A program made the position numbers and the translations under genes. 64,000 bases of DNA from Candidatus Eiseniibacteriota bacterium (GTDB taxonomy: Bacteria > Eisenbacteria > RBG-16-71-46 > CAIMUX01 > VGJL01), in NCBI GenBank assembly GCA_041946735.1, contig JBHGAY010000004.1:150292-214291 (forward strand), given 5' to 3'. Below, in pieces: positions 53,207-64,000 of the stretch. A model generated the notes under the pieces. It did no database searches, was not told where the DNA came from, and saw nothing but the letters and a program-made list of their open reading frames with translations. Numbering within the stretch: position 1 is the stretch's first letter; every line of letters starts with the position of its first letter.

Positions 53207-53723
53207 CCTGCCGCCGAAAGCTACGTTCGGGCGCGGCGGCTGTCAAGCAGCCCGGCCCGCCCCGTCTGGCCGGACGCCAGCGGGCGCGGCCGGCGACGAG
53301 AACGGGGGTTATCCGAACCCAAAACACCACTGCCTGCGCGTCGCGGCCCTGGCCGCCGACGCTCGCCATCCCACCGATCACAGCCGCCGCGCTCCCTCCG
53401 GGCGGTCCGCCTTCCCGCCAGCCGTCCGACCGACCGTCCGGCGAAATCGCGGAGGCCACGGAAGAGCGGAAGCTTCAGGGCGACATTTCCCGGCCGATCC
53501 TTGTAGGATGTCCGGAGCGGCCGGGCGAGTCAGAGCCGAACGATCCGCACGGTTCGGTCGAAGACCCGGCGACGCACGACGAATCCAGACGATCAGCCAG
53601 CCGAGCGGGGCGCACGCGGAAGGATCCGCAGCGCTGCGCCGCCTTGTCCTTGGGAAGATGCCGGCCGCCATCCCGCCACGCGATGCGGGATGCGGGAAGC
53701 CAACGCACAGATTCCGGAGACCG

Positions 53724-56186
53724 ATGCAAGTCACGATCCACGGCCATTTCTATCAACCACCGCGAGAGGATCCCTGGACGGGACGGATCCCGTCGCAGCC
53801 AGGCGCCTCTCCCTATCACGACTGGAACGCGCGGATCGGGGCGGAATGTTACGGGCCGAACGCACGCAGCCGCATTCTCGACGAGAAGGGACGGATCGAG
53901 GAGATCGTGAACAACTACGACTCGATCCACTTCGATTTCGGTCCCACGCTCCTGCACTGGCTGGAGGAAGAAGAGCCCGACATCTACCGTGACATTCTCG
54001 CTGCCGATCGGCGCTCGGTCGCGGCGCGCGGCGGGCACGGCAATGCGATCGCGCAGGCATACAATCACCTGATCCTGCCGCTCGCGTCCTATCGCGACAA
54101 GCGGACCCAGATCGCCTGGGGTCTCCGCGATTTCGAATACCGCTTCGGACGCAAGAGCGAGGCGATCTGGCTTCCGGAGACGGCGATCGATCTCGAGACT
54201 CTCCGCCTGCTCGTCGAGTTCCGGATGCGCTACGTCATCCTTGCTCCCGGGCAGGCGAAGAGGTTTCGTCCCTTGTCCGGCGGACCGTGGACCGACGTCT
54301 CCGGCGGACGGATCGATCCTCGCCGGGCCTATCGCGCCTACATCCCGGGAAGGATCGAGGCGGACCGCTCGATCGACGTCTTCTTCTACGATGGACCGCT
54401 CTCGGTCGCCGTCTCGTTCGAGCATCTGCTTCGCAACGGTTCCGGTTTCGCGGATCGTATCCACGCCGCGGGCCGCGGACCGGGAGCCACCGGCAAGGCG
54501 AGCCCGGAGACGCTCGTGCATCTCGCGACGGACGGCGAGGTGTACGGGCATCACGAGCCGTTCGGCGACATGTGCCTCGCCTATTTCAGCCAGCGCGAGG
54601 CGCCGTTGCGCGGGATGCAGTTGACGAACTACGGGGAGTACCTCGATCGACATCCCTCGCGCCACGAGGTGGAGATCGACTTCGGCGAGGACGGGGAGGG
54701 CACGTCCTGGTCGTGCGCGCATGGCGTCGGCCGTTGGCGCCGCGATTGTGGCTGCTCGATCGGCGGCCGCGGCTGGAACCAGAGGTGGAGGTCGCCGCTG
54801 CGCAAGGGTCTCGACGACTTGCGCGATCGCCTGCTCGAGGTGTACGCCGCGCACGTTTCGGATCTCGTGCAGGATCCCTGGGAGGCGCGCGACGACTACA
54901 TCTCCATCATCCTGGAAGACGGGGCGCGGGCGCGCTTCCTGGAGAAACACGCGCGCCGTCCCCTTTCCGACGAGGAGAAGGGGACGTTGTGGAAGCTCCT
55001 GGAGTCCCAGCATCAAGGAATGTTGATGTTCACCTCCTGCGCCTGGTTCTTCGACGACATCGGAGGGATCGAAGCGCAGCAGAACCTCATGTACGCGGCA
55101 CGCGCGATCGAGCTGGCGCAGCCGTTCACCCGTGTCGGCCTGGAGGAGCGGCTGCTCGGCTTTCTCGTGGAGGCGCGCAGCAACGTCCCGGAGATCGGAA
55201 CCGGGGCGGACATCTGGAAGCGATGGGTGGCGCCCCGGCGCAAGACGCACGTGTCGATCGCCGTGGAGACGGCCGGCCTCCTTGCGACGAGGATCGAGGA
55301 CGTTCCACTCGGATCGCCCGCCTTCCGCGTGGAGGTGCTCGAGAGCGGAGGAAGCTACTTCGACGGCGGAATCGGCGCATCGCTCAGAATCCAGGATCGC
55401 CGGACCGACGAGACCCGGACCTTCCGCATCCTCGCCGGGCGGGACCCCGACCGCCTGATGGTCGTCCGGGTCGAGGAGCCTGCCGCAAACGAAGGGGAAC
55501 CCCCGAAGGTCTGGGAACGATCGATCGACGGCCTTGCCGAGGAGATGCGGGCGCGAGTGATCGCCACGCTCCTCGGGGATCTGATGAGCCAGGAGGAGGC
55601 GAGGTTCGATGAGATCTTCGAGACTTCCCGTCCTCTGCTCGAGCGCTATCATGGGAGCGGCTTGAACCCTCCTCCGATCTTCCAGGCCCTGGCTTCCGAC
55701 GTCGTGAACCGGCGATTCGAGAGAGCGGCCGCGCAGATGGCTCTCACCGATCCGCGGACGCTCGAAGGAACCGACGTCTCGGAAGCATTGAAGGATCTCC
55801 GCGCGCTCGCCGAGTCGATCGGCGTGACGCCGGCTCTCGATTCGCTGGCGCGGGTGATCGAGAGGGCGATCGACGCGGATCTGGCCGCCGTCTCCGAAGT
55901 CCGCGACGATGACGTTTCTCGTGTCGTGGGCTTGCTTCTTGCAGCGGAGAGAAACGGAATCGCGATCCGGCGCACGAAGCTCGAGGAAAGGGCCTACGCT
56001 CTGATGAGGCATCACCAGGCGATCCTGGGAGCCCATCTTGCCGGCCTACCCGAGCCACGAGCGGGGATCGATCCCCAGCTGCTGATCCGTCTGGCGGAGT
56101 GCACGAACCTGAGCCTGCGCACGTTCGAGATGACGGGCGGGCGTCCGGAGAGAACAGAGAAGGAGTCGGTCGATGAGACCCGATGA
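53724..56186 (+). CDS. GH57-family glycoside hydrolase with DUF3536
   Basis: IHGHFYQPPRE, WLPETA, ATDGE.YGHH, SWSCAHGVGRW, MFTSCAWFFD. Confidence 0.9.
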   Translation: MQVTIHGHFYQPPREDPWTGRIPSQPGASPYHDWNARIGAECYGPNARSRILDEKGRIEEIVNNYDSIHFDFGPTLLHWLEEEEPDIYRDILAADRRSVAARGGHGNAIAQAYNHLILPLASYRDKRTQIAWGLRDFEYRFGRKSEAIWLPETAIDLETLRLLVEFRMRYVILAPGQAKRFRPLSGGPWTDVSGGRIDPRRAYRAYIPGRIEADRSIDVFFYDGPLSVAVSFEHLLRNGSGFADRIHAAGRGPGATGKASPETLVHLATDGEVYGHHEPFGDMCLAYFSQREAPLRGMQLTNYGEYLDRHPSRHEVEIDFGEDGEGTSWSCAHGVGRWRRDCGCSIGGRGWNQRWRSPLRKGLDDLRDRLLEVYAAHVSDLVQDPWEARDDYISIILEDGARARFLEKHARRPLSDEEKGTLWKLLESQHQGMLMFTSCAWFFDDIGGIEAQQNLMYAARAIELAQPFTRVGLEERLLGFLVEARSNVPEIGTGADIWKRWVAPRRKTHVSIAVETAGLLATRIEDVPLGSPAFRVEVLESGGSYFDGGIGASLRIQDRRTDETRTFRILAGRDPDRLMVVRVEEPAANEGEPPKVWERSIDGLAEEMRARVIATLLGDLMSQEEARFDEIFETSRPLLERYHGSGLNPPPIFQALASDVVNRRFERAAAQMALTDPRTLEGTDVSEALKDLRALAESIGVTPALDSLARVIERAIDADLAAVSEVRDDDVSRVVGLLLAAERNGIAIRRTKLEERAYALMRHHQAILGAHLAGLPEPRAGIDPQLLIRLAECTNLSLRTFEMTGGRPERTEKESVDETR

Positions 56187-58443
56187 ACTGAACGAGAGGT
56201 CGAAGAAGGATCTGCTCGAGCTGGCGCGCAAGCTGTCCATCTCGGGCCGAAGCGCCATGGGGAAGGAGGAGCTGGTTCGGGCGATCCTGCGCGCTTCTCC
56301 CTCCACCTCGAAGGGCGGCAAGCGGACGAAGGGGGCTGGTGAAGGAGCGCGCGATTCCGCTTCTCGTTCCCGTGCAGCAGGACGCAAGGAAGCGGAGAAG
56401 CACGCCCCCGATGTTCCTGCCGCGCGGTCGAAGGCGAAGGCGAGCGCCGGACGCGCCGGACGACTCGCGGCCAAGCCTTCCCGGCCGCGAGTCGAGGAGG
56501 CTCCGGTCGCGCCGCAGGCGGTGGTGCCGCCGGCCGCGCCGCCCGCGCCTCCAACCTCGCCACCTTCTTCGCAGCCGACTGCGCCGCCGCCAGGAATGCG
56601 CGCCGCGCCCGAGCCGCACCGTTCGGGAATGGAGCCGCCTTCTCGCGGCGCGCACGCGCGCGAAGCAGGCGGGGCCGTCGGTCCAGCCGGCGAACGGCGC
56701 CCGGCCGAGCAGCGGGACGACCGCCGGCGCGATGGCCGGCCGGCGGATCGCCGCGACGAACGCCGGGAGGACCGCCGGGAGGACCGGCCTCCCCAACGGC
56801 ACGACGACCGTCATGGCAACCGGCCGGTGGATCGCCGTGACGACCGGCCCGCGGGACGCCGTGACGACCGTCCTGCGGACCGGCGCGACGACCGGCGCCC
56901 GCGTCACGAGCGCGAGGATCGCGGACGCTTCCGGGATCGCGACGATCGCGGACGTGGCCCGCGCGAGGAGCGAAGGGATCCGAGCAGGCTGCGCGAGCCC
57001 CATCCGGGCCGCGAGATCGCCGGACCGCGACCACCCCACCGCGTCGATCCGTCGAGGAACCGTCCGCCGCGCGACGCCCGCCCAGGCGACCGCCGCGGCA
57101 TGCCTCCGGAAGATCCGGCGATGAAGCTGTCGCGAGTGGAAGCGATCCGCAAGGACATGCCGGGTAGGCGCCCCGGCGGGCCGCGCTCCGACATGTCTCG
57201 CGGCGGCCGCCCGGATCGGCGCGACTCGGCCCCGGGAAACCGCGGGGCCGCCGGAAGAGGCGGGTATCCGTCGCGCACCGAAGGACGCCGGCCCAACGAC
57301 GTTCGCAATGGCGGCGGCAGCCGCTTCGAGCGCAATGACCGGCCGGAGCACAATCGCGGCTTCGAGAACGACGAGCGCGCGTTGCAGGCGCGCGAGCATC
57401 TCCGCCGCTCTGGAGAGGCGCGAGCGAACAGCGGCTACACGCCCCAGTACGAGCGCCCGCGCGAGAAGACGCCGATCGCGGAGGGGAACCGCCCGCCTTC
57501 GCCGCCGCCACCACCACCTCCGCCTCCGGCACGACGTGAGCAGCCGCCCGAGCGGACGCACGGCCGGCCGGATCCGTCGCTACAAATGGCCGAGGGACCG
57601 TCGCGGCCCGGTCATCCGCTCGAGTTGCCGGAGAGCTACGGCAAGGATCGCCTGACGCTGATGGTCCGCGATCCCTACTGGATCCACGCTTACTGGGAGG
57701 TGACGCCTGAGACGATCGAGCGCGCCAAGCGGGAGCTGGGCGCGTCGTGGGAGGGAAGCCGCTGGATCCTGCGGGTCTCCTCCTACCCGGAAGACACGGG
57801 GAAGGAGCCCGAGTTCTTCGACATCGACCTCCACGCGGACGCCCGCAACTGGTACCTGCGCGTGCCGAATCCCGATCGCTCCTATGAGGGGATGATCGGA
57901 GTCGTCACGCGGGAGGGGACCTTCTACCCCTTCGCGCGCAGCAACCGCGTCCGCACCCCCCGCGACTCGATGAGCCCCGTCTCGGACGTCGAATGGACGA
58001 CGACGCAGGAGCAGTTCGAGAAGATCTACGCCCTCTCGGGCGGTCACGCGATCGGGCGGTCCTCCTTCGAGGCGGGCGAGGAGCTGCGCGCGCCCATGCA
58101 GGAGGCGATGTTCTCCGGGATGCTCGGAAGCATGAACATCGGATCCGGCGCGATGGGCGGGGCGCGGCGTCCACGCTCGTTCTGGTTCCAGCTCGACACG
58201 GAGCTGGTGGTCTACGGAGCGACGGAGCCGGATGCGCAGGTGACGGTCCAGGGACGGCCGGTGGCTTTGCGGCCGGACGGCACGTTCAGCGTCCGCTTCC
58301 AGCTTCCGGATGGTGTGCAGGAGATCCCTTGCGTCGCGCGTTCGGCCGACGGGATCTCGGAGCGAGAAATCACGCCGACGGTCCGCAGGAACACGAACTC
58401 TTCGGAACGTGATGCGGACCACGAGGCGGAGCCCGAGATCTAG
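56173..58443 (+). CDS. DUF4912 protein with N-terminal Rho_N-like helical domain and long disordered linker
   Basis: N-terminal KDLLELARKLSISGRSAMGKEELV; C-terminal LPESYG...LMVRDPYWIHAYWEV...RSNRVRTP; ELVVYGATEPDA. Confidence 0.85.
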   Translation: MRPDELNERSKKDLLELARKLSISGRSAMGKEELVRAILRASPSTSKGGKRTKGAGEGARDSASRSRAAGRKEAEKHAPDVPAARSKAKASAGRAGRLAAKPSRPRVEEAPVAPQAVVPPAAPPAPPTSPPSSQPTAPPPGMRAAPEPHRSGMEPPSRGAHAREAGGAVGPAGERRPAEQRDDRRRDGRPADRRDERREDRREDRPPQRHDDRHGNRPVDRRDDRPAGRRDDRPADRRDDRRPRHEREDRGRFRDRDDRGRGPREERRDPSRLREPHPGREIAGPRPPHRVDPSRNRPPRDARPGDRRGMPPEDPAMKLSRVEAIRKDMPGRRPGGPRSDMSRGGRPDRRDSAPGNRGAAGRGGYPSRTEGRRPNDVRNGGGSRFERNDRPEHNRGFENDERALQAREHLRRSGEARANSGYTPQYERPREKTPIAEGNRPPSPPPPPPPPPARREQPPERTHGRPDPSLQMAEGPSRPGHPLELPESYGKDRLTLMVRDPYWIHAYWEVTPETIERAKRELGASWEGSRWILRVSSYPEDTGKEPEFFDIDLHADARNWYLRVPNPDRSYEGMIGVVTREGTFYPFARSNRVRTPRDSMSPVSDVEWTTTQEQFEKIYALSGGHAIGRSSFEAGEELRAPMQEAMFSGMLGSMNIGSGAMGGARRPRSFWFQLDTELVVYGATEPDAQVTVQGRPVALRPDGTFSVRFQLPDGVQEIPCVARSADGISEREITPTVRRNTNSSERDADHEAEPEI

Positions 58444-58472
58444 GGAAGAGCCCGTAACGCAAGGGAGGCCCG

Positions 58473-60071
58473 ATGGAGAAGGGATACCTGAGCCTGGTTC
58501 TCCACGCTCATCTGCCGTACGTGCGGCATCCCGAGTTCGAGCACTTCCTCGAGGAGAGCTGGCTTTACGAGGCGATCACGGAGACGTACGTCCCGTTGAT
58601 CCGGATGATGGAGCGGCTGACCAATGAGGGGGTCCACTTCCGCTATGCCCTCTCCATCTCCCCCCCTCTGGCGGGGATGCTCTCCGATCCCTTGCTGCAG
58701 GGAAGGTTCCTGCGACACATCGAAGAGCTGGTCGAGCTCTCGGAGAAGGAGATCGAGCGCACCCGCTGGCTGCCGGAGTTCCAGCCGCTGGCGCAGGAGT
58801 ACAACCGCATCTTCCGCGAGACGCGCGAGATCTTCGCCGACCGCTACGGGTCGAATCTCCTGACCGCGTTTCGACGCTTCCAGGATGCCGGCGTCCTCGA
58901 GATCATCACCGTCGGCGCGACGCACGGCTTCTTTCCGCTCATGCTCGGCAACCGCAACTGGTGGCGCGGGCAGGTGCTGCTCGCGAAGCAGGACTACGAG
59001 CGCTGCTTCGGCCGCCCGCCGCGCGGGATCTGGCTCCCCGAGTGCGGCTACGAGCCCGGCGTCGAGGAGGTGCTGAAGGAAGCGGGGATCCGCTACTTCT
59101 TCCTCGACACGCACGGGATCCTGCACGCCACGCCGCGTCCGAAGTTCGGCGTCTTCGCGCCCGTCGTGACCAAGTCGGGGGTCGCCGCCTTCGGGCGCGA
59201 TCTCGAGTCGTCGAAGTCGGTCTGGAGCTCGAAGGAGGGATATCCGGGCGATTCGCTCTATCGCGAGTTCTACCGGGACATCGGCTGGGATCTCGACTAC
59301 GAGTACGTCAAGCCGTACCTCCACGGGGACGGCAAGCGCCGCAATCTGGGGATCAAATACTTCCGGATCACCGGGCCGGGCGACCACAAGGAGCCGTACA
59401 ATTTCGCCTGGGCGAAGGAGAGGGCCGCCGAGCACGCGGGCAACTTCATGTTCAACCGCGAGAGGCAGAGCGAGTATCTCTTCCAGCTGCTCGGGCGCCC
59501 GCCGATCATCGTCTCCCCCTACGACGCAGAGCTGTTCGGGCACTGGTGGTACGAGGGGCCCCTATGGATCGAGTATCTCTTCCGCAAGATCGCGTTCGAC
59601 CAGAAGGTGATCGCGACGATCACACCGAGCGAATACCTCGACCGCTTCCCGATCCAGCAGATCGCCACCCCCTCCGGTTCGTCGTGGGGATACAAGGGAT
59701 ACGCGGAGGTCTGGCTCAACGGATCGAACGACTGGATCTATCCGCACCTCCATGCCGCCGCCGAGCGGATGGTGGAGCTCGCGAATCGCTACCGGGACCG
59801 CTCCTCTCTCGATCCGCTCTACGCGCGGGCGCTCAGCCAGGCGGCCCGGGAGCTGCTGCTCGCGCAGAGCAGCGACTGGGCGTTCATCATGAAGACCGGC
59901 ACCATGGTCAGCTATGCCGTGCAGAGGACGAAAGAGCACATTGCCAATTTCAACAAGATCTACAACGACATCCATTCCGGAAGGATCGACGAATGGTGGC
60001 TCTCTGCGGTCGAGCAGAAGAACAACATCTTCCCTGACCTCGACTACACCGTCTATGCGGATCCCGCTTGA
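58473..60071 (+). CDS. GH57 1,4-alpha-glucan branching enzyme (DUF1957)
   Basis: LHAHLPYV, GIWLPECGY, PYDAELFGHWW.EG, ARELLLAQSSDWAFI. Confidence 0.93.
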   Translation: MEKGYLSLVLHAHLPYVRHPEFEHFLEESWLYEAITETYVPLIRMMERLTNEGVHFRYALSISPPLAGMLSDPLLQGRFLRHIEELVELSEKEIERTRWLPEFQPLAQEYNRIFRETREIFADRYGSNLLTAFRRFQDAGVLEIITVGATHGFFPLMLGNRNWWRGQVLLAKQDYERCFGRPPRGIWLPECGYEPGVEEVLKEAGIRYFFLDTHGILHATPRPKFGVFAPVVTKSGVAAFGRDLESSKSVWSSKEGYPGDSLYREFYRDIGWDLDYEYVKPYLHGDGKRRNLGIKYFRITGPGDHKEPYNFAWAKERAAEHAGNFMFNRERQSEYLFQLLGRPPIIVSPYDAELFGHWWYEGPLWIEYLFRKIAFDQKVIATITPSEYLDRFPIQQIATPSGSSWGYKGYAEVWLNGSNDWIYPHLHAAAERMVELANRYRDRSSLDPLYARALSQAARELLLAQSSDWAFIMKTGTMVSYAVQRTKEHIANFNKIYNDIHSGRIDEWWLSAVEQKNNIFPDLDYTVYADPA

Positions 60072-63000
60072 TACGGCTTGCCGCCGGCGCAGGCAGATCC
60101 CGAGAGCGGAACGGAAGGCGCGCGGCGCACGGGCGGCCCTGTTCGCCGCTCTGCTCTCGGTCGCCCTGACGGGTGCCGCGCTCTGCCAGGGCGACGCTGC
60201 GGCCGACGCTCCGGCCGGCGCGGAGGAGGTGCCGCGCCCCGACTTCAGCCTTCCCGCCGCTCAGGACACGACGATCCTGAACCAGGTCGTCCTCTCCTTC
60301 CGCGAGCATTTCCGCTACGACCAGCATCCCGACTCGACCCTCTACGGCACGGTGGAGCTGCACGCCTACAAGGTCCTGGGCGACGGCACCATCGTCCGCG
60401 ACACCCGCCTGGTGGTCGTGGACGCGCCAAACGACCTGACCGTCGGCGTTGTCACCGACAAGGAGGTTTATCGGCCGGGGGAAACGGCCCAGATCGACCT
60501 GCAGACGAGCGACCACGCGGGAAGCGGGGTCCAGACGGCGCTGGGGTTGGCCATCGTGGACGAATCCGTCTTTGCCCTTCAGCAACAGGACCCGGGCTTT
60601 GCCAAGCTCTACTTTATGCTCGAACAGGAGCTGATGGAGCCGTTCTACCAGATCAAGCAGTTTGAGTTTCCGGCCGAAATCCAAGAGGACGAGGATGTGC
60701 TGCGCCAGACGCAGGACGACGCGGCCAAGGCGGCCTGGTCCGGGATCCCGGCAACGGCCACCGTGTCGCTCAACTCGCGCGAGATCAAGATGGCCTCGAT
60801 CGAGCAGGCCCAGGCGAGCGGATTTCAGCGCCTGGAGCAGTTCGGCACGCTGGCAACGGTGTTTGTGCCGCTCTTGCTCTGGATCGTCGTCGTCGTCATC
60901 CTCGTCGACGCGCACGCCTTTGAAAAGGCCGTGGAGCGAACGTTCGTCGGCGCCGCCATCCTGGTGGGCGTCGCCATACCCCTGTTCTGCGTGGTCCTCG
61001 CTACCCAGAGACAGATGGCCGGGGAGTTTGCGGCCATGTTCTACCCCTTCCTGATCATCTTTGTCGGAGGAGGGCTCTTTCTCGCCGGGTACGGCTGGCA
61101 GAAGCGGAACACGGCCGCGCAGTTTGTCGGCCTGTTGGCGCTGGCCTGGAGCGGCGCCGTCTGGGTGCTCGACCGCGCCCTCGGCCAAAGCGCCTCCCCG
61201 TCGATGGGGCTCATCGCCCTGGCCGTCCTCGGCGGCCTCATGATCCCCGGCGTCTACCTGCTCTTCGGGCAGGGGTTGTGGGTACAGGAGCAGCACGCCG
61301 CCGGGGCCACGGCCACAGGCATGAGCGCCCTGGCCGTGCTGCTGCTGGTCCTGCTGCCGTTCCTCCTGGCTTCGTGCGGCGCCGCTATGGGGCGCATGAT
61401 GCCGGCCCAGGTCACCGCCCCACCGCAGGTTGTGAAGGAGGAAGAGGCGGCGCCGGCCCAGGAAGGCGCCCCGCGGCTGCGGCAGTATTTTCCCGAGACG
61501 CTCTACTGGGCGCCCGAAGTAGTGACCGACCGGCACGGCTACGTCGCGCTGGATATCCCGTTGGCCGACAGCATCACCACCTGGCGGTTGACGGCGCTGG
61601 CTTCCTCGCAGGACGGGCGCCTCGGCTTTACCACCCACGGGGTGCGCGTCTTCCAGGACTTTTTCGTCGACATCGACCTGCCGGTCGCCCTCACCGTGGA
61701 CGACGAAGTCAGTATCCCCGTCGGCGTCTACAACTATCTGCCCGAGGAGCAGCAGGTGCGGCTCGAGGTGCAGCAGGAGCCGTGGTTCGAGCTGCTGGGA
61801 GCGGGCGAACAGGTCATTGCCATCGCCCCCAACGACATCACCGTGGTCTACTTTCCCATCCGCGTGCGTGACTTTGGACAGCAAGGCTTCCAGGTAACCG
61901 CCTGGGGCACGCAGATGAACGACGCCATCCGCCGCGAGGTCCAGGTCGTCCCGAACGGCAAGGAAGTGTGGCAGACCGAGAGCAACTGGCTGCGGACGAG
62001 CCGGGAGGTGCCGATCGACATCCCGGCCGGCGCCGTCGACGGGGCAACGTACGTCGAGGTCAAGATTTACCCCGGGGCGTTGGCGCAGGTAGTGGAAGGA
62101 TTGGAAAATATCCTCCACCTGCCCCATGGCTGATTCGAACAGAGTACGTCGGCGACGTACCCAAACGTGTTGGTCCTGGATTACCTGCAGCGGATGCAAG
62201 TCGCCAGCCCCGAGGCACAGATGATGGCCGAAAAGTACGTGGCCACCGGCTATCAGCGGCTGCTGACCTTTGAGGTTCCGAGCGGCGGATTCTCGCTCTT
62301 TGGGAGCCCGCCCGCCGACCCGTTCCTGACCGCCTACGGCTTGATGCAGCTGGCGGACATGAAGCGGATCTACCCGGTCGACGAGGCAGTGATCGAACGG
62401 ACGGCCGAGTGGCTGTTGGACCGCCAGAATATGGATGGAAGCTGGCAGACGGGCGACGTGCGCGCCGGTAGTGGCGTTCTCGGTTCGACCGCTTATGTCA
62501 CCTGGGCACTCATCCAGGCCGGTTATGGAAAGGACCAAGGGGTCGCCCAAGCGATCGACTACCTCCGCGAATTCGCGCCGCGGGAAAAAGATGCGTACAG
62601 CCTGGCCCTGGCCGCCAACGCCCTGGCCGCTTACGACGCCGGGGACAGCGGCACGCGGGCTATCGTCGACCTGCTGTACAAGATGCGCGTGACCGCGGGC
62701 GACGGGGTCCATTGGCCGATCACCGCCAGCTCTTTCATGGGGGCAACCGGGACCAGCGGCAGCATCGAGACCACGGCCCTGGCCGCCATGGCCCTGATGC
62801 AGGCGGGCGTCCACCCCGACGCGGCGAGCGCCGCCCTGTCTTACCTGGTGCAGTCCAAGGATTCCTGGGGCACCTGGAGCACGACCCAGGCGACGATCCT
62901 TTCGCTCAAGGCGCTGCTCATGGCCGGCGAACAGCGGGCCGAGGTCGGCGAGCCGGCCCAGGTGCGCATCAGCCTGAACGGCGAACAGGCCCAGGAGGTT

Positions 63001-63564
63001 GCGATCGGCGAGGAGAATGCCGATGTGGTGCACCTGGTCACCTTTGCCCAGGGCTTTTCGCCCGAGGGGGCGAACCGGGTGTCGATCGAGCTCCAGGGCG
63101 GTGGCAACCTGATGTACCAGGTGGCCACGCGCTACTACATGCCCTGGGAGCTGGTGCCGGAGGAAGCCGGGGATGAGCAGGCGATCACCATCGACCTGAG
63201 CTACGACCGGACCGCCCTGGCGGTCAACGACACGGTAACGGTGGACGTCGACGTGACACTGAACCGCGCGGGCATGGTCCGGATGGCCCTGGTCGACCTG
63301 GGCGTGCCCCCGGGATTTAGCGTCATGGAGGAAGACTTGCAGCTGCTCGTGGAGAAAGAGATGATCTCGCACTATGAGTTGACCGGGCGGCAGATCATCC
63401 TCTACCTGGAAAACTTTTCCTCGGAGGCGCCGCTGCGTTTCAGCTACCGCCTGCTGGCGCGCTTTCCGCTGCGGGCGCAGACACCGCCGTCGACGGCGTA
63501 CGACTATTACAACCCGAGCCAGGTTACGGTAGAGGCGCCGTTGGAGGTGGTGGTAGAACCGTAG
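60055..63564 (+). CDS. Alpha-2-macroglobulin-family thioester protein read through an in-frame TGA (probable selenocysteine) at 62131-62133; about 1169 aa
   Basis: ORFs 59914-62133 and 62167-63564 share a frame and join as ILHLPHG*FEQSTSATYPNVLVLDYL. A2M hallmarks: DKEVYRPGE, LAIVDESV, RQYFPETLYW, LADSITTW, VFQDFF, GYQRLLTF...GGFS.FG, W.TTQAT, M.LVDLGVPPGF, AYDYYNP. Start codon uncertain. Confidence 0.85.
62134..62171 (+). promoter_or_regulatory. Putative bacterial SECIS element
   Basis: GTACGTC(62144-50)-GGC-GACGTAC(62154-60), a perfect 7-bp stem; G-first loop begins 17 nt after the UGA; possible lower pairing AACA(62138-41)/TGTT(62168-71). Confidence 0.7.
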
Positions 63565-63650
63565 GATGTCGGCGGCAACCTTGCGGAGACTCGAAAAACC
63601 TTTGCAAGGGGCAAAGCACAAGGAAGAGAAGGAAAACAAGGAAAACCGGG

Positions 63651-63688
63651 AAAACCAGGGCGGCGCAGGGAAAGCTGCCCTGGTTTTT
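63651..63688 (+). terminator. Putative intrinsic terminator after the A2M gene
   Basis: AAAACCAGGGCGGC-9 nt loop-GCTGCCCTGGTTTTT. Confidence 0.55.
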
Positions 63689-63897
63689 CGTGCTTGCGCG
63701 GAGGCAGAGGTTCGGACAGCGGATGAAAGCGGAGAAGCGGAGAAAAGCTACAGTCTGCGAAAGATCTTGGAGTGCCGAAGCCTTGCTTCGGCTTACTTTG
63801 GTCAGTTCCCACGCAGCGCCGAAGCCTTGCTTGGTCCTCTAGATATACAGTATCGCCGAGAAGCTGCCAACTTTTCGGCGACACCATCGAGTTTCGG

Positions 63898-64000
63898 CCC
63901 TTCTGCTGACGTGTTTGGAGTCTTCAGCCGGCATATTGAGACTCGTCTGCCGACGTGTTACGGCTCGTCTGCCGACGTGTTACGGCTCGTCTGCCGACGT
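63898..64000. repeat. 22-bp tandem repeat running off the window end
   Basis: ctcgtctgccgacgtgttacgg exact at 63942 and 63964, partial at 63986; degenerate in-phase copies at 63898 and 63920. Confidence 0.85.

Follow-up and report, generated by a model that had tools for sequence, protein, structure and literature searches.

The question raised by this locus is what a TGA codon does, in frame, in the middle of an alpha-2-macroglobulin (A2M)-like gene, at the column where the relatives of the encoded protein carry the cysteine of their internal thioester. The gene lies near the end of the window, by which we mean the whole stretch of 64,000 nucleotides analyzed (positions 150,292 to 214,291 of contig JBHGAY010000004.1 in assembly GCA_041946735.1, a metagenome-assembled genome named Candidatus Eiseniibacteriota bacterium and called the host MAG below); all coordinates are those of the window. 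The evidence described here indicates that the UGA at 62131-62133 is very probably a selenocysteine (Sec) codon. The open reading frames 59914..62133 and 62167..63564 belong to one reading frame, and reading the TGA as U gives a 1216-residue product with this single internal stop and the sequence LPHG-U-FEQSTSATYPN (codons ...CTG CCC CAT GGC TGA TTC GAA CAG AGT ACG TCG GCG ACG TAC CCA AAC...). The frame check and the joint translation agree with the first-pass annotation of this DNA, which had taken the two A2M frames for one that is interrupted by a single TGA. It had also held that tryptophan is written TGG in this gene, which argues against a code with UGA as Trp, and the codon counts bear this out: from 60055 onward there are 19 TGG, 1 TGA and 4 TGC codons, and the terminator is TAG. 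Its statement that neither half shows other decay could not be upheld, for the first 148 codons are not macroglobulin and about 480 N-terminal residues are missing.

Analysis with Pfam placed A2M_BRD at residues 149-222, A2M at 529-618 (3.4e-22), TED_complement at 722-1001 (4e-41) and A2M_recep at 1123-1205 (3.2e-14). The A2M, TED and receptor-binding domains thus stand in the canonical A2M/TEP order and span both halves of the interrupted frame. The reactive motif reads G-U-F-E-Q, in which Gly, Glu and Gln are retained and the codon for Cys is replaced by UGA. The N-terminal MG1-MG4 domains, represented in full-length relatives by PF01835, PF17791 and PF17789, are not present in the window copy, whose macroglobulin sequence sets in at a point equivalent to about residue 500 in the homologues. 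About six hydrophobic helices are encoded at 60832-61404 (amino acids 260-450 if the Met at 60055 is taken as the first), where they separate the A2M_BRD from the A2M domain, and no bait sequence was identifiable between these two domains of the window gene. The six-helix stretch is covered by the homologue alignment and therefore seems to be a feature of the family; an even number of helices would put both flanks on one side of a membrane. The TGA itself was also seen outside this assembly, in contigs of the Logan collection from a run designated X1, which is probably the source sample of the window, its Logan contigs constituting an independent assembly. Records 6 and 7 of that run cover 61749-63230 with zero differing letters, the TGA included.

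A protein homologue search was carried out with residues 520-1216 as the query against a large protein collection. It returned proteins of about 1650 residues with 50-67% identity and source names from Anaerolineae and Chloroflexota. Among the matches listed, all 120 full-length homologues have G-C-F-E-Q at the column of the UGA, with highly conserved flanks, and the UGA column is therefore that of the thioester cysteine. That the full-length matches are all Cys forms is explained by gene callers, which split the TGA forms in two. The predicted G-U-F-E-Q protein very probably belongs to a large and conserved Sec-bearing branch of an A2M/TEP-like family of about 1650 residues. Sixty relatives of the host MAG contained no orthologue, only classic A2Ms at 22-27% identity.

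The distribution of the TGA forms was determined at the DNA level with the pattern GGN-TGR-TTY-GAR-CAR-N12-ACN-TAY-CCN-AAY, which permits either TGA or TGG at the codon in question, TGG being the other single-step third-position change from TGC or TGT. Matches were found at no fewer than 121 metagenome loci (at least that many) and at 92 loci of species genomes, and the codon was TGA in at least 213 loci and TGG in none. Where there was enough flanking sequence, the frames were open for about 1100-1500 codons on the 5' side of the UGA and about 455-510 codons on the 3' side. The loci differ in their flanking residues and are therefore not copies of one sequence; the closest DNA to that of the window is about 74% identical. 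The titles of the TGA-form records show that the Sec branch is frequent among Anaerolineae and other Chloroflexota and occurs also in Planctomycetota (Gemmatales and a Candidatus Kuenenia stuttgartiensis MAG among them) and a few other groups, namely Abditibacteriales, Vulcanimicrobiota and Marinacidobacterales. In 401 Anaerolineae genomes, a protein search that did not depend on the pattern found 29 matches containing one TGA and 23 containing none; in 401 genomes of a second class it found 3 TGA and 3 Cys forms of this subfamily. When the DNA of the 32 TGA forms from the protein search was read, every one had the TGA exactly at the thioester column, in the motif U-F-E-Q. Altogether 245 TGA forms were present among the inspected loci, so that independent homologues with TGA at this column, which the first-pass annotation had named as a check of its proposal, are plentiful.

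For a phylogenetic tree, the site itself was masked, and the 225 residues preceding it and the 455 following it were used; the 285 rows were reduced to 122 Sec and 130 Cys forms once identical rows had been dropped. The state at the site changes between Sec and Cys 9 times on this tree, compared with a minimum of 69 in 200 label shuffles, the midpoint rooting giving no direction to these changes. One large Cys clade comprises 120 tips (support 0.995), Cys forms also occur singly inside groups of Sec forms, and the window gene falls within an all-Sec clade of 8 tips (support 0.997).

Some of the loci collected in these searches have features of their own. Two TGA-form macroglobulin genes occur on one contig in the pairs L074 and L096, L098 and L099, L072 and L116, and L173 and L203, in some cases about 4.8 kb apart, which suggests that they are tandem paralogues. 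The loci L109, L194, L203, L235 and L246 have ample flanking sequence, yet only 287-429 codons are open before the Sec codon; a frameshift, an assembly error or a second recoded stop could be the cause. A distant A2M of the classic type, L297 (G082:C38; 29% identical), has a TGA in the motif G-U-T-E-Q, and five more distant A2M matches with one TGA were found in the search of the second class of genomes.

The sequence beyond the UGA bears the marks of translation. Comparison of the window gene with six relatives gave dN/dS values of 0.22-0.59 for the part upstream of the UGA and 0.15-0.37 for the part downstream; with dS values that are high and in part saturated, only the comparison of the two halves is meaningful. 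The first in-frame candidate for a restart lies between codon 4 and codon 28 after the UGA and is missing altogether from 5 of the 189 distinct contexts, while F-E-Q precedes the first candidate in 189 of 189. A gene split into two parts with a restart was rejected, as no restart codon is conserved and F-E-Q stands before every candidate. TGA serves as a real terminator in 42 of 172 complete TGA-form genes, and UGA is therefore not reassigned in these organisms. An alternative code in which UGA is read as Trp or Gly was rejected on this ground and on that of the TGG codons for Trp in the window gene.

The UGA is followed by a short hairpin resembling a selenocysteine insertion sequence (SECIS), whose distance from the UGA fits bacterial SECIS elements. 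Among 161 distinct contexts of 48 nucleotides after the UGA, any one of the seven pairs can form in 91 to 152, and 123 have GGU or GGC as the loop. In most TGA forms the core ACGUC-GNN-GACGU is fixed at fourfold-degenerate sites: the hairpin codons ACG, UCG, GYG and ACG are constant at the third position, and their neighbours vary. The median minimum free energy of the 30 nucleotides downstream was -8.3 kcal/mol in 189 distinct TGA contexts versus -1.4 kcal/mol in 14 Cys contexts (Mann-Whitney p = 5e-9, a value that overstates the significance, the sequences being related). The hairpin is absent from all 14 Cys-form DNAs, which have other codons and no fold, just as the first-pass annotation had anticipated in supposing that it would be kept only in TGA versions. 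The TGA forms of the Planctomycetota type do not have this hairpin and show other, longer ones at the same place.

Insertion of Sec requires the corresponding genes. The host MAG has them, with tRNA-Sec at 72 bits (anticodon tca), selB at 349 bits, selA at 479 bits and selD at 388 bits. The macroglobulin segment has likely been mis-joined to this MAG, as discussed below, and the host selABCD are therefore not evidence; the first-pass annotation had aptly referred to the genome that truly owns this segment. The Sec genes were checked instead in five holders of TGA forms, two of which carry the closest relatives of the window gene. All five have tRNA-Sec (tca) and selD, four of the selD genes having an in-frame TGA of their own, and selB was above the cut-off in three. 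SelD of the Sec type, with an in-frame TGA, is encoded in the host MAG (G000:C2:108941-109867, L018) and in four holder genomes (L345-L348). In G061, G062 and G064, selD has a candidate 7-bp stem with a 3-nucleotide loop starting with G, located 26 nucleotides past its UGA compared with 10 in the macroglobulin gene, and a second hairpin lies nearer. The gene for selA was above the cut-off in 26 of 29 Anaerolineae holding TGA forms and in 10 of 15 that hold only Cys forms. Two genomes counted for selA (G810 and G853) and one row of the Cys forms (L275, genome G163) are marked as unpublished, and the conclusions do not rest on them.

The selenocysteine reading, first put forward in the first-pass annotation, is supported by the conserved UGA, the hairpin specific to TGA forms, frames that are open and under purifying selection on both sides, and the Sec genes of the holders, and it was weighed against other accounts of the UGA. 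An erroneous TGA, produced in sequencing or assembly in place of a true TGC or TGT, would require only a single-base difference at a place where the depth is only about 9-11, but identical letters are found in the X1 Logan contigs, the window has the hairpin codons specific to TGA forms and its gene nests in the all-Sec clade; this source of the TGA was rejected and its probability is close to nil. A genuine stop would leave a pseudogene, an N-terminal product of 739 residues only, or two polypeptides with a restart. The splitting of TGA forms by gene callers, with Cys at the column in all full-coverage protein matches, the 5' truncation of the window copy and an in-frame GTG 12 codons after the TGA speak for such a stop. 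It is nevertheless very improbable in view of the at least 213 pattern matches with TGA and none with TGG, the two flanking frames that stay open in sequences only about 50-75% identical, the low downstream dN/dS, the confinement of the hairpin to TGA forms, and the lack of a conserved restart after the F-E-Q. Somewhat more room is left for read-through without Sec, either by near-cognate insertion of Trp or Cys or through a local recoding signal independent of SelB. The residue inserted is deduced from sequence and not from experiment, covariation gives the hairpin no proof, and the spacing of the hairpin is unlike that of the candidate selD hairpin in the same genomes. We still consider read-through of this kind improbable, since every homologue without the TGA has Cys at the column, which makes a classic Sec/Cys pair, the interchange of the two on the tree is like that in known selenoprotein families, and tRNA-Sec is present in the five holders tested.

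A different matter is whether the macroglobulin segment, which forms the end of the contig, belongs to the host at all. The gene upstream of the macroglobulin frame, at 58473-60071, encodes a GH57 branching enzyme, and three relatives of the same family have this gene in synteny (76-79% identical); behind it stands an unrelated gene of about 445 residues, referred to below as gene X, whose N-terminus matches window residues 101-148 at 54-58% identity. The alignment of macroglobulin homologues with the window begins only at about residue 500 of the homologues; window residues 115-1216, for instance, align to 597-1732 of the open frame of L205, the start of which includes upstream read-through. 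Gene X reads ...DSTLYGTVEHFKSL, the window ...DSTLYGTVELHAYKV and the macroglobulin relatives ...LYGTLELHAYKV, and the switch therefore falls in a motif common to both parents. In run X1, contigs over 56000-60358 have a depth of 24-33 and those on the macroglobulin side 8-11, and a contig of depth 33 follows the window to 60358 and continues with 757 letters unlike it. In run X2, from another study, 56000-60358 is covered at a depth of 9-14 and the macroglobulin side at about 0, and a contig of depth 9 likewise follows the window to 60358, after which come 317 unlike letters. None of the pieces listed for X1 and X2 spans the joint, a gap that in such a listing does not prove absence. From these data, the window copy is very likely a 5'-truncated fragment that was mis-assembled at about 60358 onto an unrelated host gene, and its true owner is probably a Chloroflexota-like organism of lower coverage in the same sample. 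The alternative is a real fusion, in which a host strain gained a 5'-truncated Sec macroglobulin by horizontal transfer, placed it in frame behind the signal peptide of gene X and serves it with its own selABCD. The joint is indeed in frame with a signal-peptide-like N-terminus kept, the MAG has complete Sec genes, the remainder of gene X was not found in the host MAG, where gene X matches only at 60205-60360, and the GC content of the segment (0.655, with 0.867 at third codon positions, GC3) is near that of the neighbouring genes. However, an assembler joining two genes at a motif of both parents would produce the in-frame joint automatically, the segment stands at a contig end, and the sixty MAG relatives reach a best identity of 27% with no orthologue among them. 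Together with the diverging contigs and the change in depth in both runs, this makes a real fusion unlikely. The gene should not be credited to the host MAG, as the end of the contig is probably chimeric.

Several results weigh against the selenocysteine reading or against the chemistry proposed for it. The 91-nucleotide stretch of the window folds no better than its shuffles (z = 0.50), so that the weight of the hairpin comes from the comparative data. A covariation test on 150 of the 161 contexts gave a score of 0.022 versus 0.036 for shuffled data, with 78.6% and 78.3% of the cells paired; the stem is therefore conserved and not covarying, and what supports it is the conservation at synonymous sites and the link with TGA. 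Comparison of the site region with Rfam produced only chance-level matches and no family. No RNA dataset is listed among those in which the sequence occurs. The selB gene is fragmentary in two of the five holder genomes, and no selA was detected in 3 of the 29 TGA holders; selA is above the cut-off in 347 of the 401 sampled Anaerolineae, and its presence in TGA holders therefore hardly discriminates. As to the protein, Sec could have a redox or other role instead, and protease trapping by this family is putative and not established, with the helices occupying the place of the bait region.

The features of the locus are collected in the table.

Features of the interrupted macroglobulin gene and of the joint upstream of it (window coordinates)
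Feature	Position	Strand	Remarks
5' part of the reading frame, from the unrelated host gene X, with signal-peptide-like N-terminus	60055..60358	+	similarity of residues 101-148 to the gene behind GH57 in three relatives
Probable mis-assembly joint	60340..60358	.	short L-Y-G-T-V-E coding stretch common to both parent genes
Macroglobulin-like coding sequence 5' of the UGA	60359..62130	+	end of an MG domain, A2M_BRD, six hydrophobic helices, A2M domain, start of TED
In-frame UGA, proposed Sec codon	62131-62133	+	column of the thioester Cys
F-E-Q codons	62134..62142	+	Gln codon 62140-62142 is the thioester acyl partner in Cys forms
Coding sequence 3' of the motif	62143..63564	+	remaining TED and receptor-binding (MG8) domain; TAG stop at 63562-63564
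SECIS-like hairpin GUACGUC-GGC-GACGUAC	62144-62160	+	7-bp stem, 62144-62150 with 62154-62160; loop GGC 62151-62153; starts 10 nt past the UGA

Two parts of the window adjoin the gene. On the 5' side, 53508-60071 holds a row of glycogen-related genes encoding a GH57 protein with DUF3536, a DUF4912 protein and the GH57 branching enzyme, the latter with BE_C. On the 3' side, the last 435 bases (63566-64000) have 56% GC compared with about 66-70% elsewhere; they contain an open frame without a Pfam match, and no match to them was found in any of the loci fetched. The whole sequence between about 60359 and the end of the contig may derive from another organism, which bears on other findings made there.

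The proposed course of events is as follows. The ribosome would meet the UGA, and SelB carrying Sec-tRNA(Sec) would be recruited by the hairpin just downstream. Sec would be placed where the Cys forms have the thioester cysteine, and translation would proceed through the TED and receptor-binding domains. In the folded protein, the selenol of Sec would attack the side chain of the Gln that stands three residues further, in the manner of the cysteine of A2M, C3 and TEP, and the outcome would be an internal Sec-Gln selenoester, a more reactive acyl donor for the covalent capture of targets. We infer that Sec insertion depends on SelB and, from general selenoester chemistry, that the selenoester has the higher acyl-transfer reactivity. 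By analogy with the thioester proteins, we give the formation of a Sec-Gln selenoester an even chance. The broader proposal, which we regard as equally open to being right or wrong, is that a widespread natural family uses Sec as the acyl-bearing atom of an internal selenoester and not for redox, that the switch between sulfur and selenium was made or reversed about nine times, and that it took place also in a second, distant A2M subfamily.

To our knowledge, natural selenoproteins have been described almost entirely as redox catalysts. Sec at a thioester of the A2M/complement type would, if confirmed, be a different use of selenium, tuning the reactivity of an acyl bond in covalent capture, and the selenoester would, as a covalent warhead, react faster than the thioester of complement and A2M proteins. 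A large family would be added to the bacterial selenoproteome, with the TGA form in 29 of the 401 sampled Anaerolineae. Because gene callers split the TGA forms, databases have only the Cys forms at full length. Close relatives with Sec and Cys forms constitute natural matched pairs in which the effect of selenium on thioester chemistry can be studied. Full-text literature searches returned no publication on a Sec macroglobulin. None of the words macroglobulin, thioester, A2M and MG2 is found in the main text of a 2026 review of the prokaryotic selenoproteome (PMC13188914), of BSepDB 2026 (PMC13326102) or of deep-Sep 2025 (PMC12013277), or in the supplements of the last two, whose text may be incomplete.

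Among solved structures, the best match to the window protein is human A2M, with 185 bits over residues 521-1204, followed by CD109, A2ML1, TEP1 and C3/C4 (PDB sequences). The A2M/C3/TEP family (human A2M, PDB 7von and 6tav; CD109; A2ML1; insect TEP1; C3 and C4) has the same domain order from the bait-region domain on, and its G-x-x-E-Q motif stands at the same place of the TED as in the window gene. The differences are that the window gene encodes the Cys of the motif as UGA, has six hydrophobic helices at the place of the bait region, and comes from bacterial hosts. Type I bacterial A2Ms, such as E. coli ECAM/YfhM and Salmonella A2M, are likewise bacterial and have multiple MG domains, a TED and the thioester motif; they are believed to trap proteases (PMC4498604). 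The ECAM and Salmonella A2M chains were absent from the 52 PDB sequences matched at E <= 1e-5. With the classic A2Ms found in the MAG relatives and in Chloroflexota, which have 1900-2200 residues, the window protein shares only 22-30% identity. Bacterial selenoproteins that occur as Sec/Cys pairs (SelD, formate dehydrogenase, glycine reductase and peroxiredoxin-like proteins) resemble the present family in having an in-frame UGA versus Cys, a downstream hairpin and a scattered distribution on the tree. The catalogued selenoprotein families use Sec mainly in redox chemistry (PMC13188914, PMC12013277). The macroglobulin gene differs from those selenoproteins in that the cysteine replaced is acyl-bearing and not redox.

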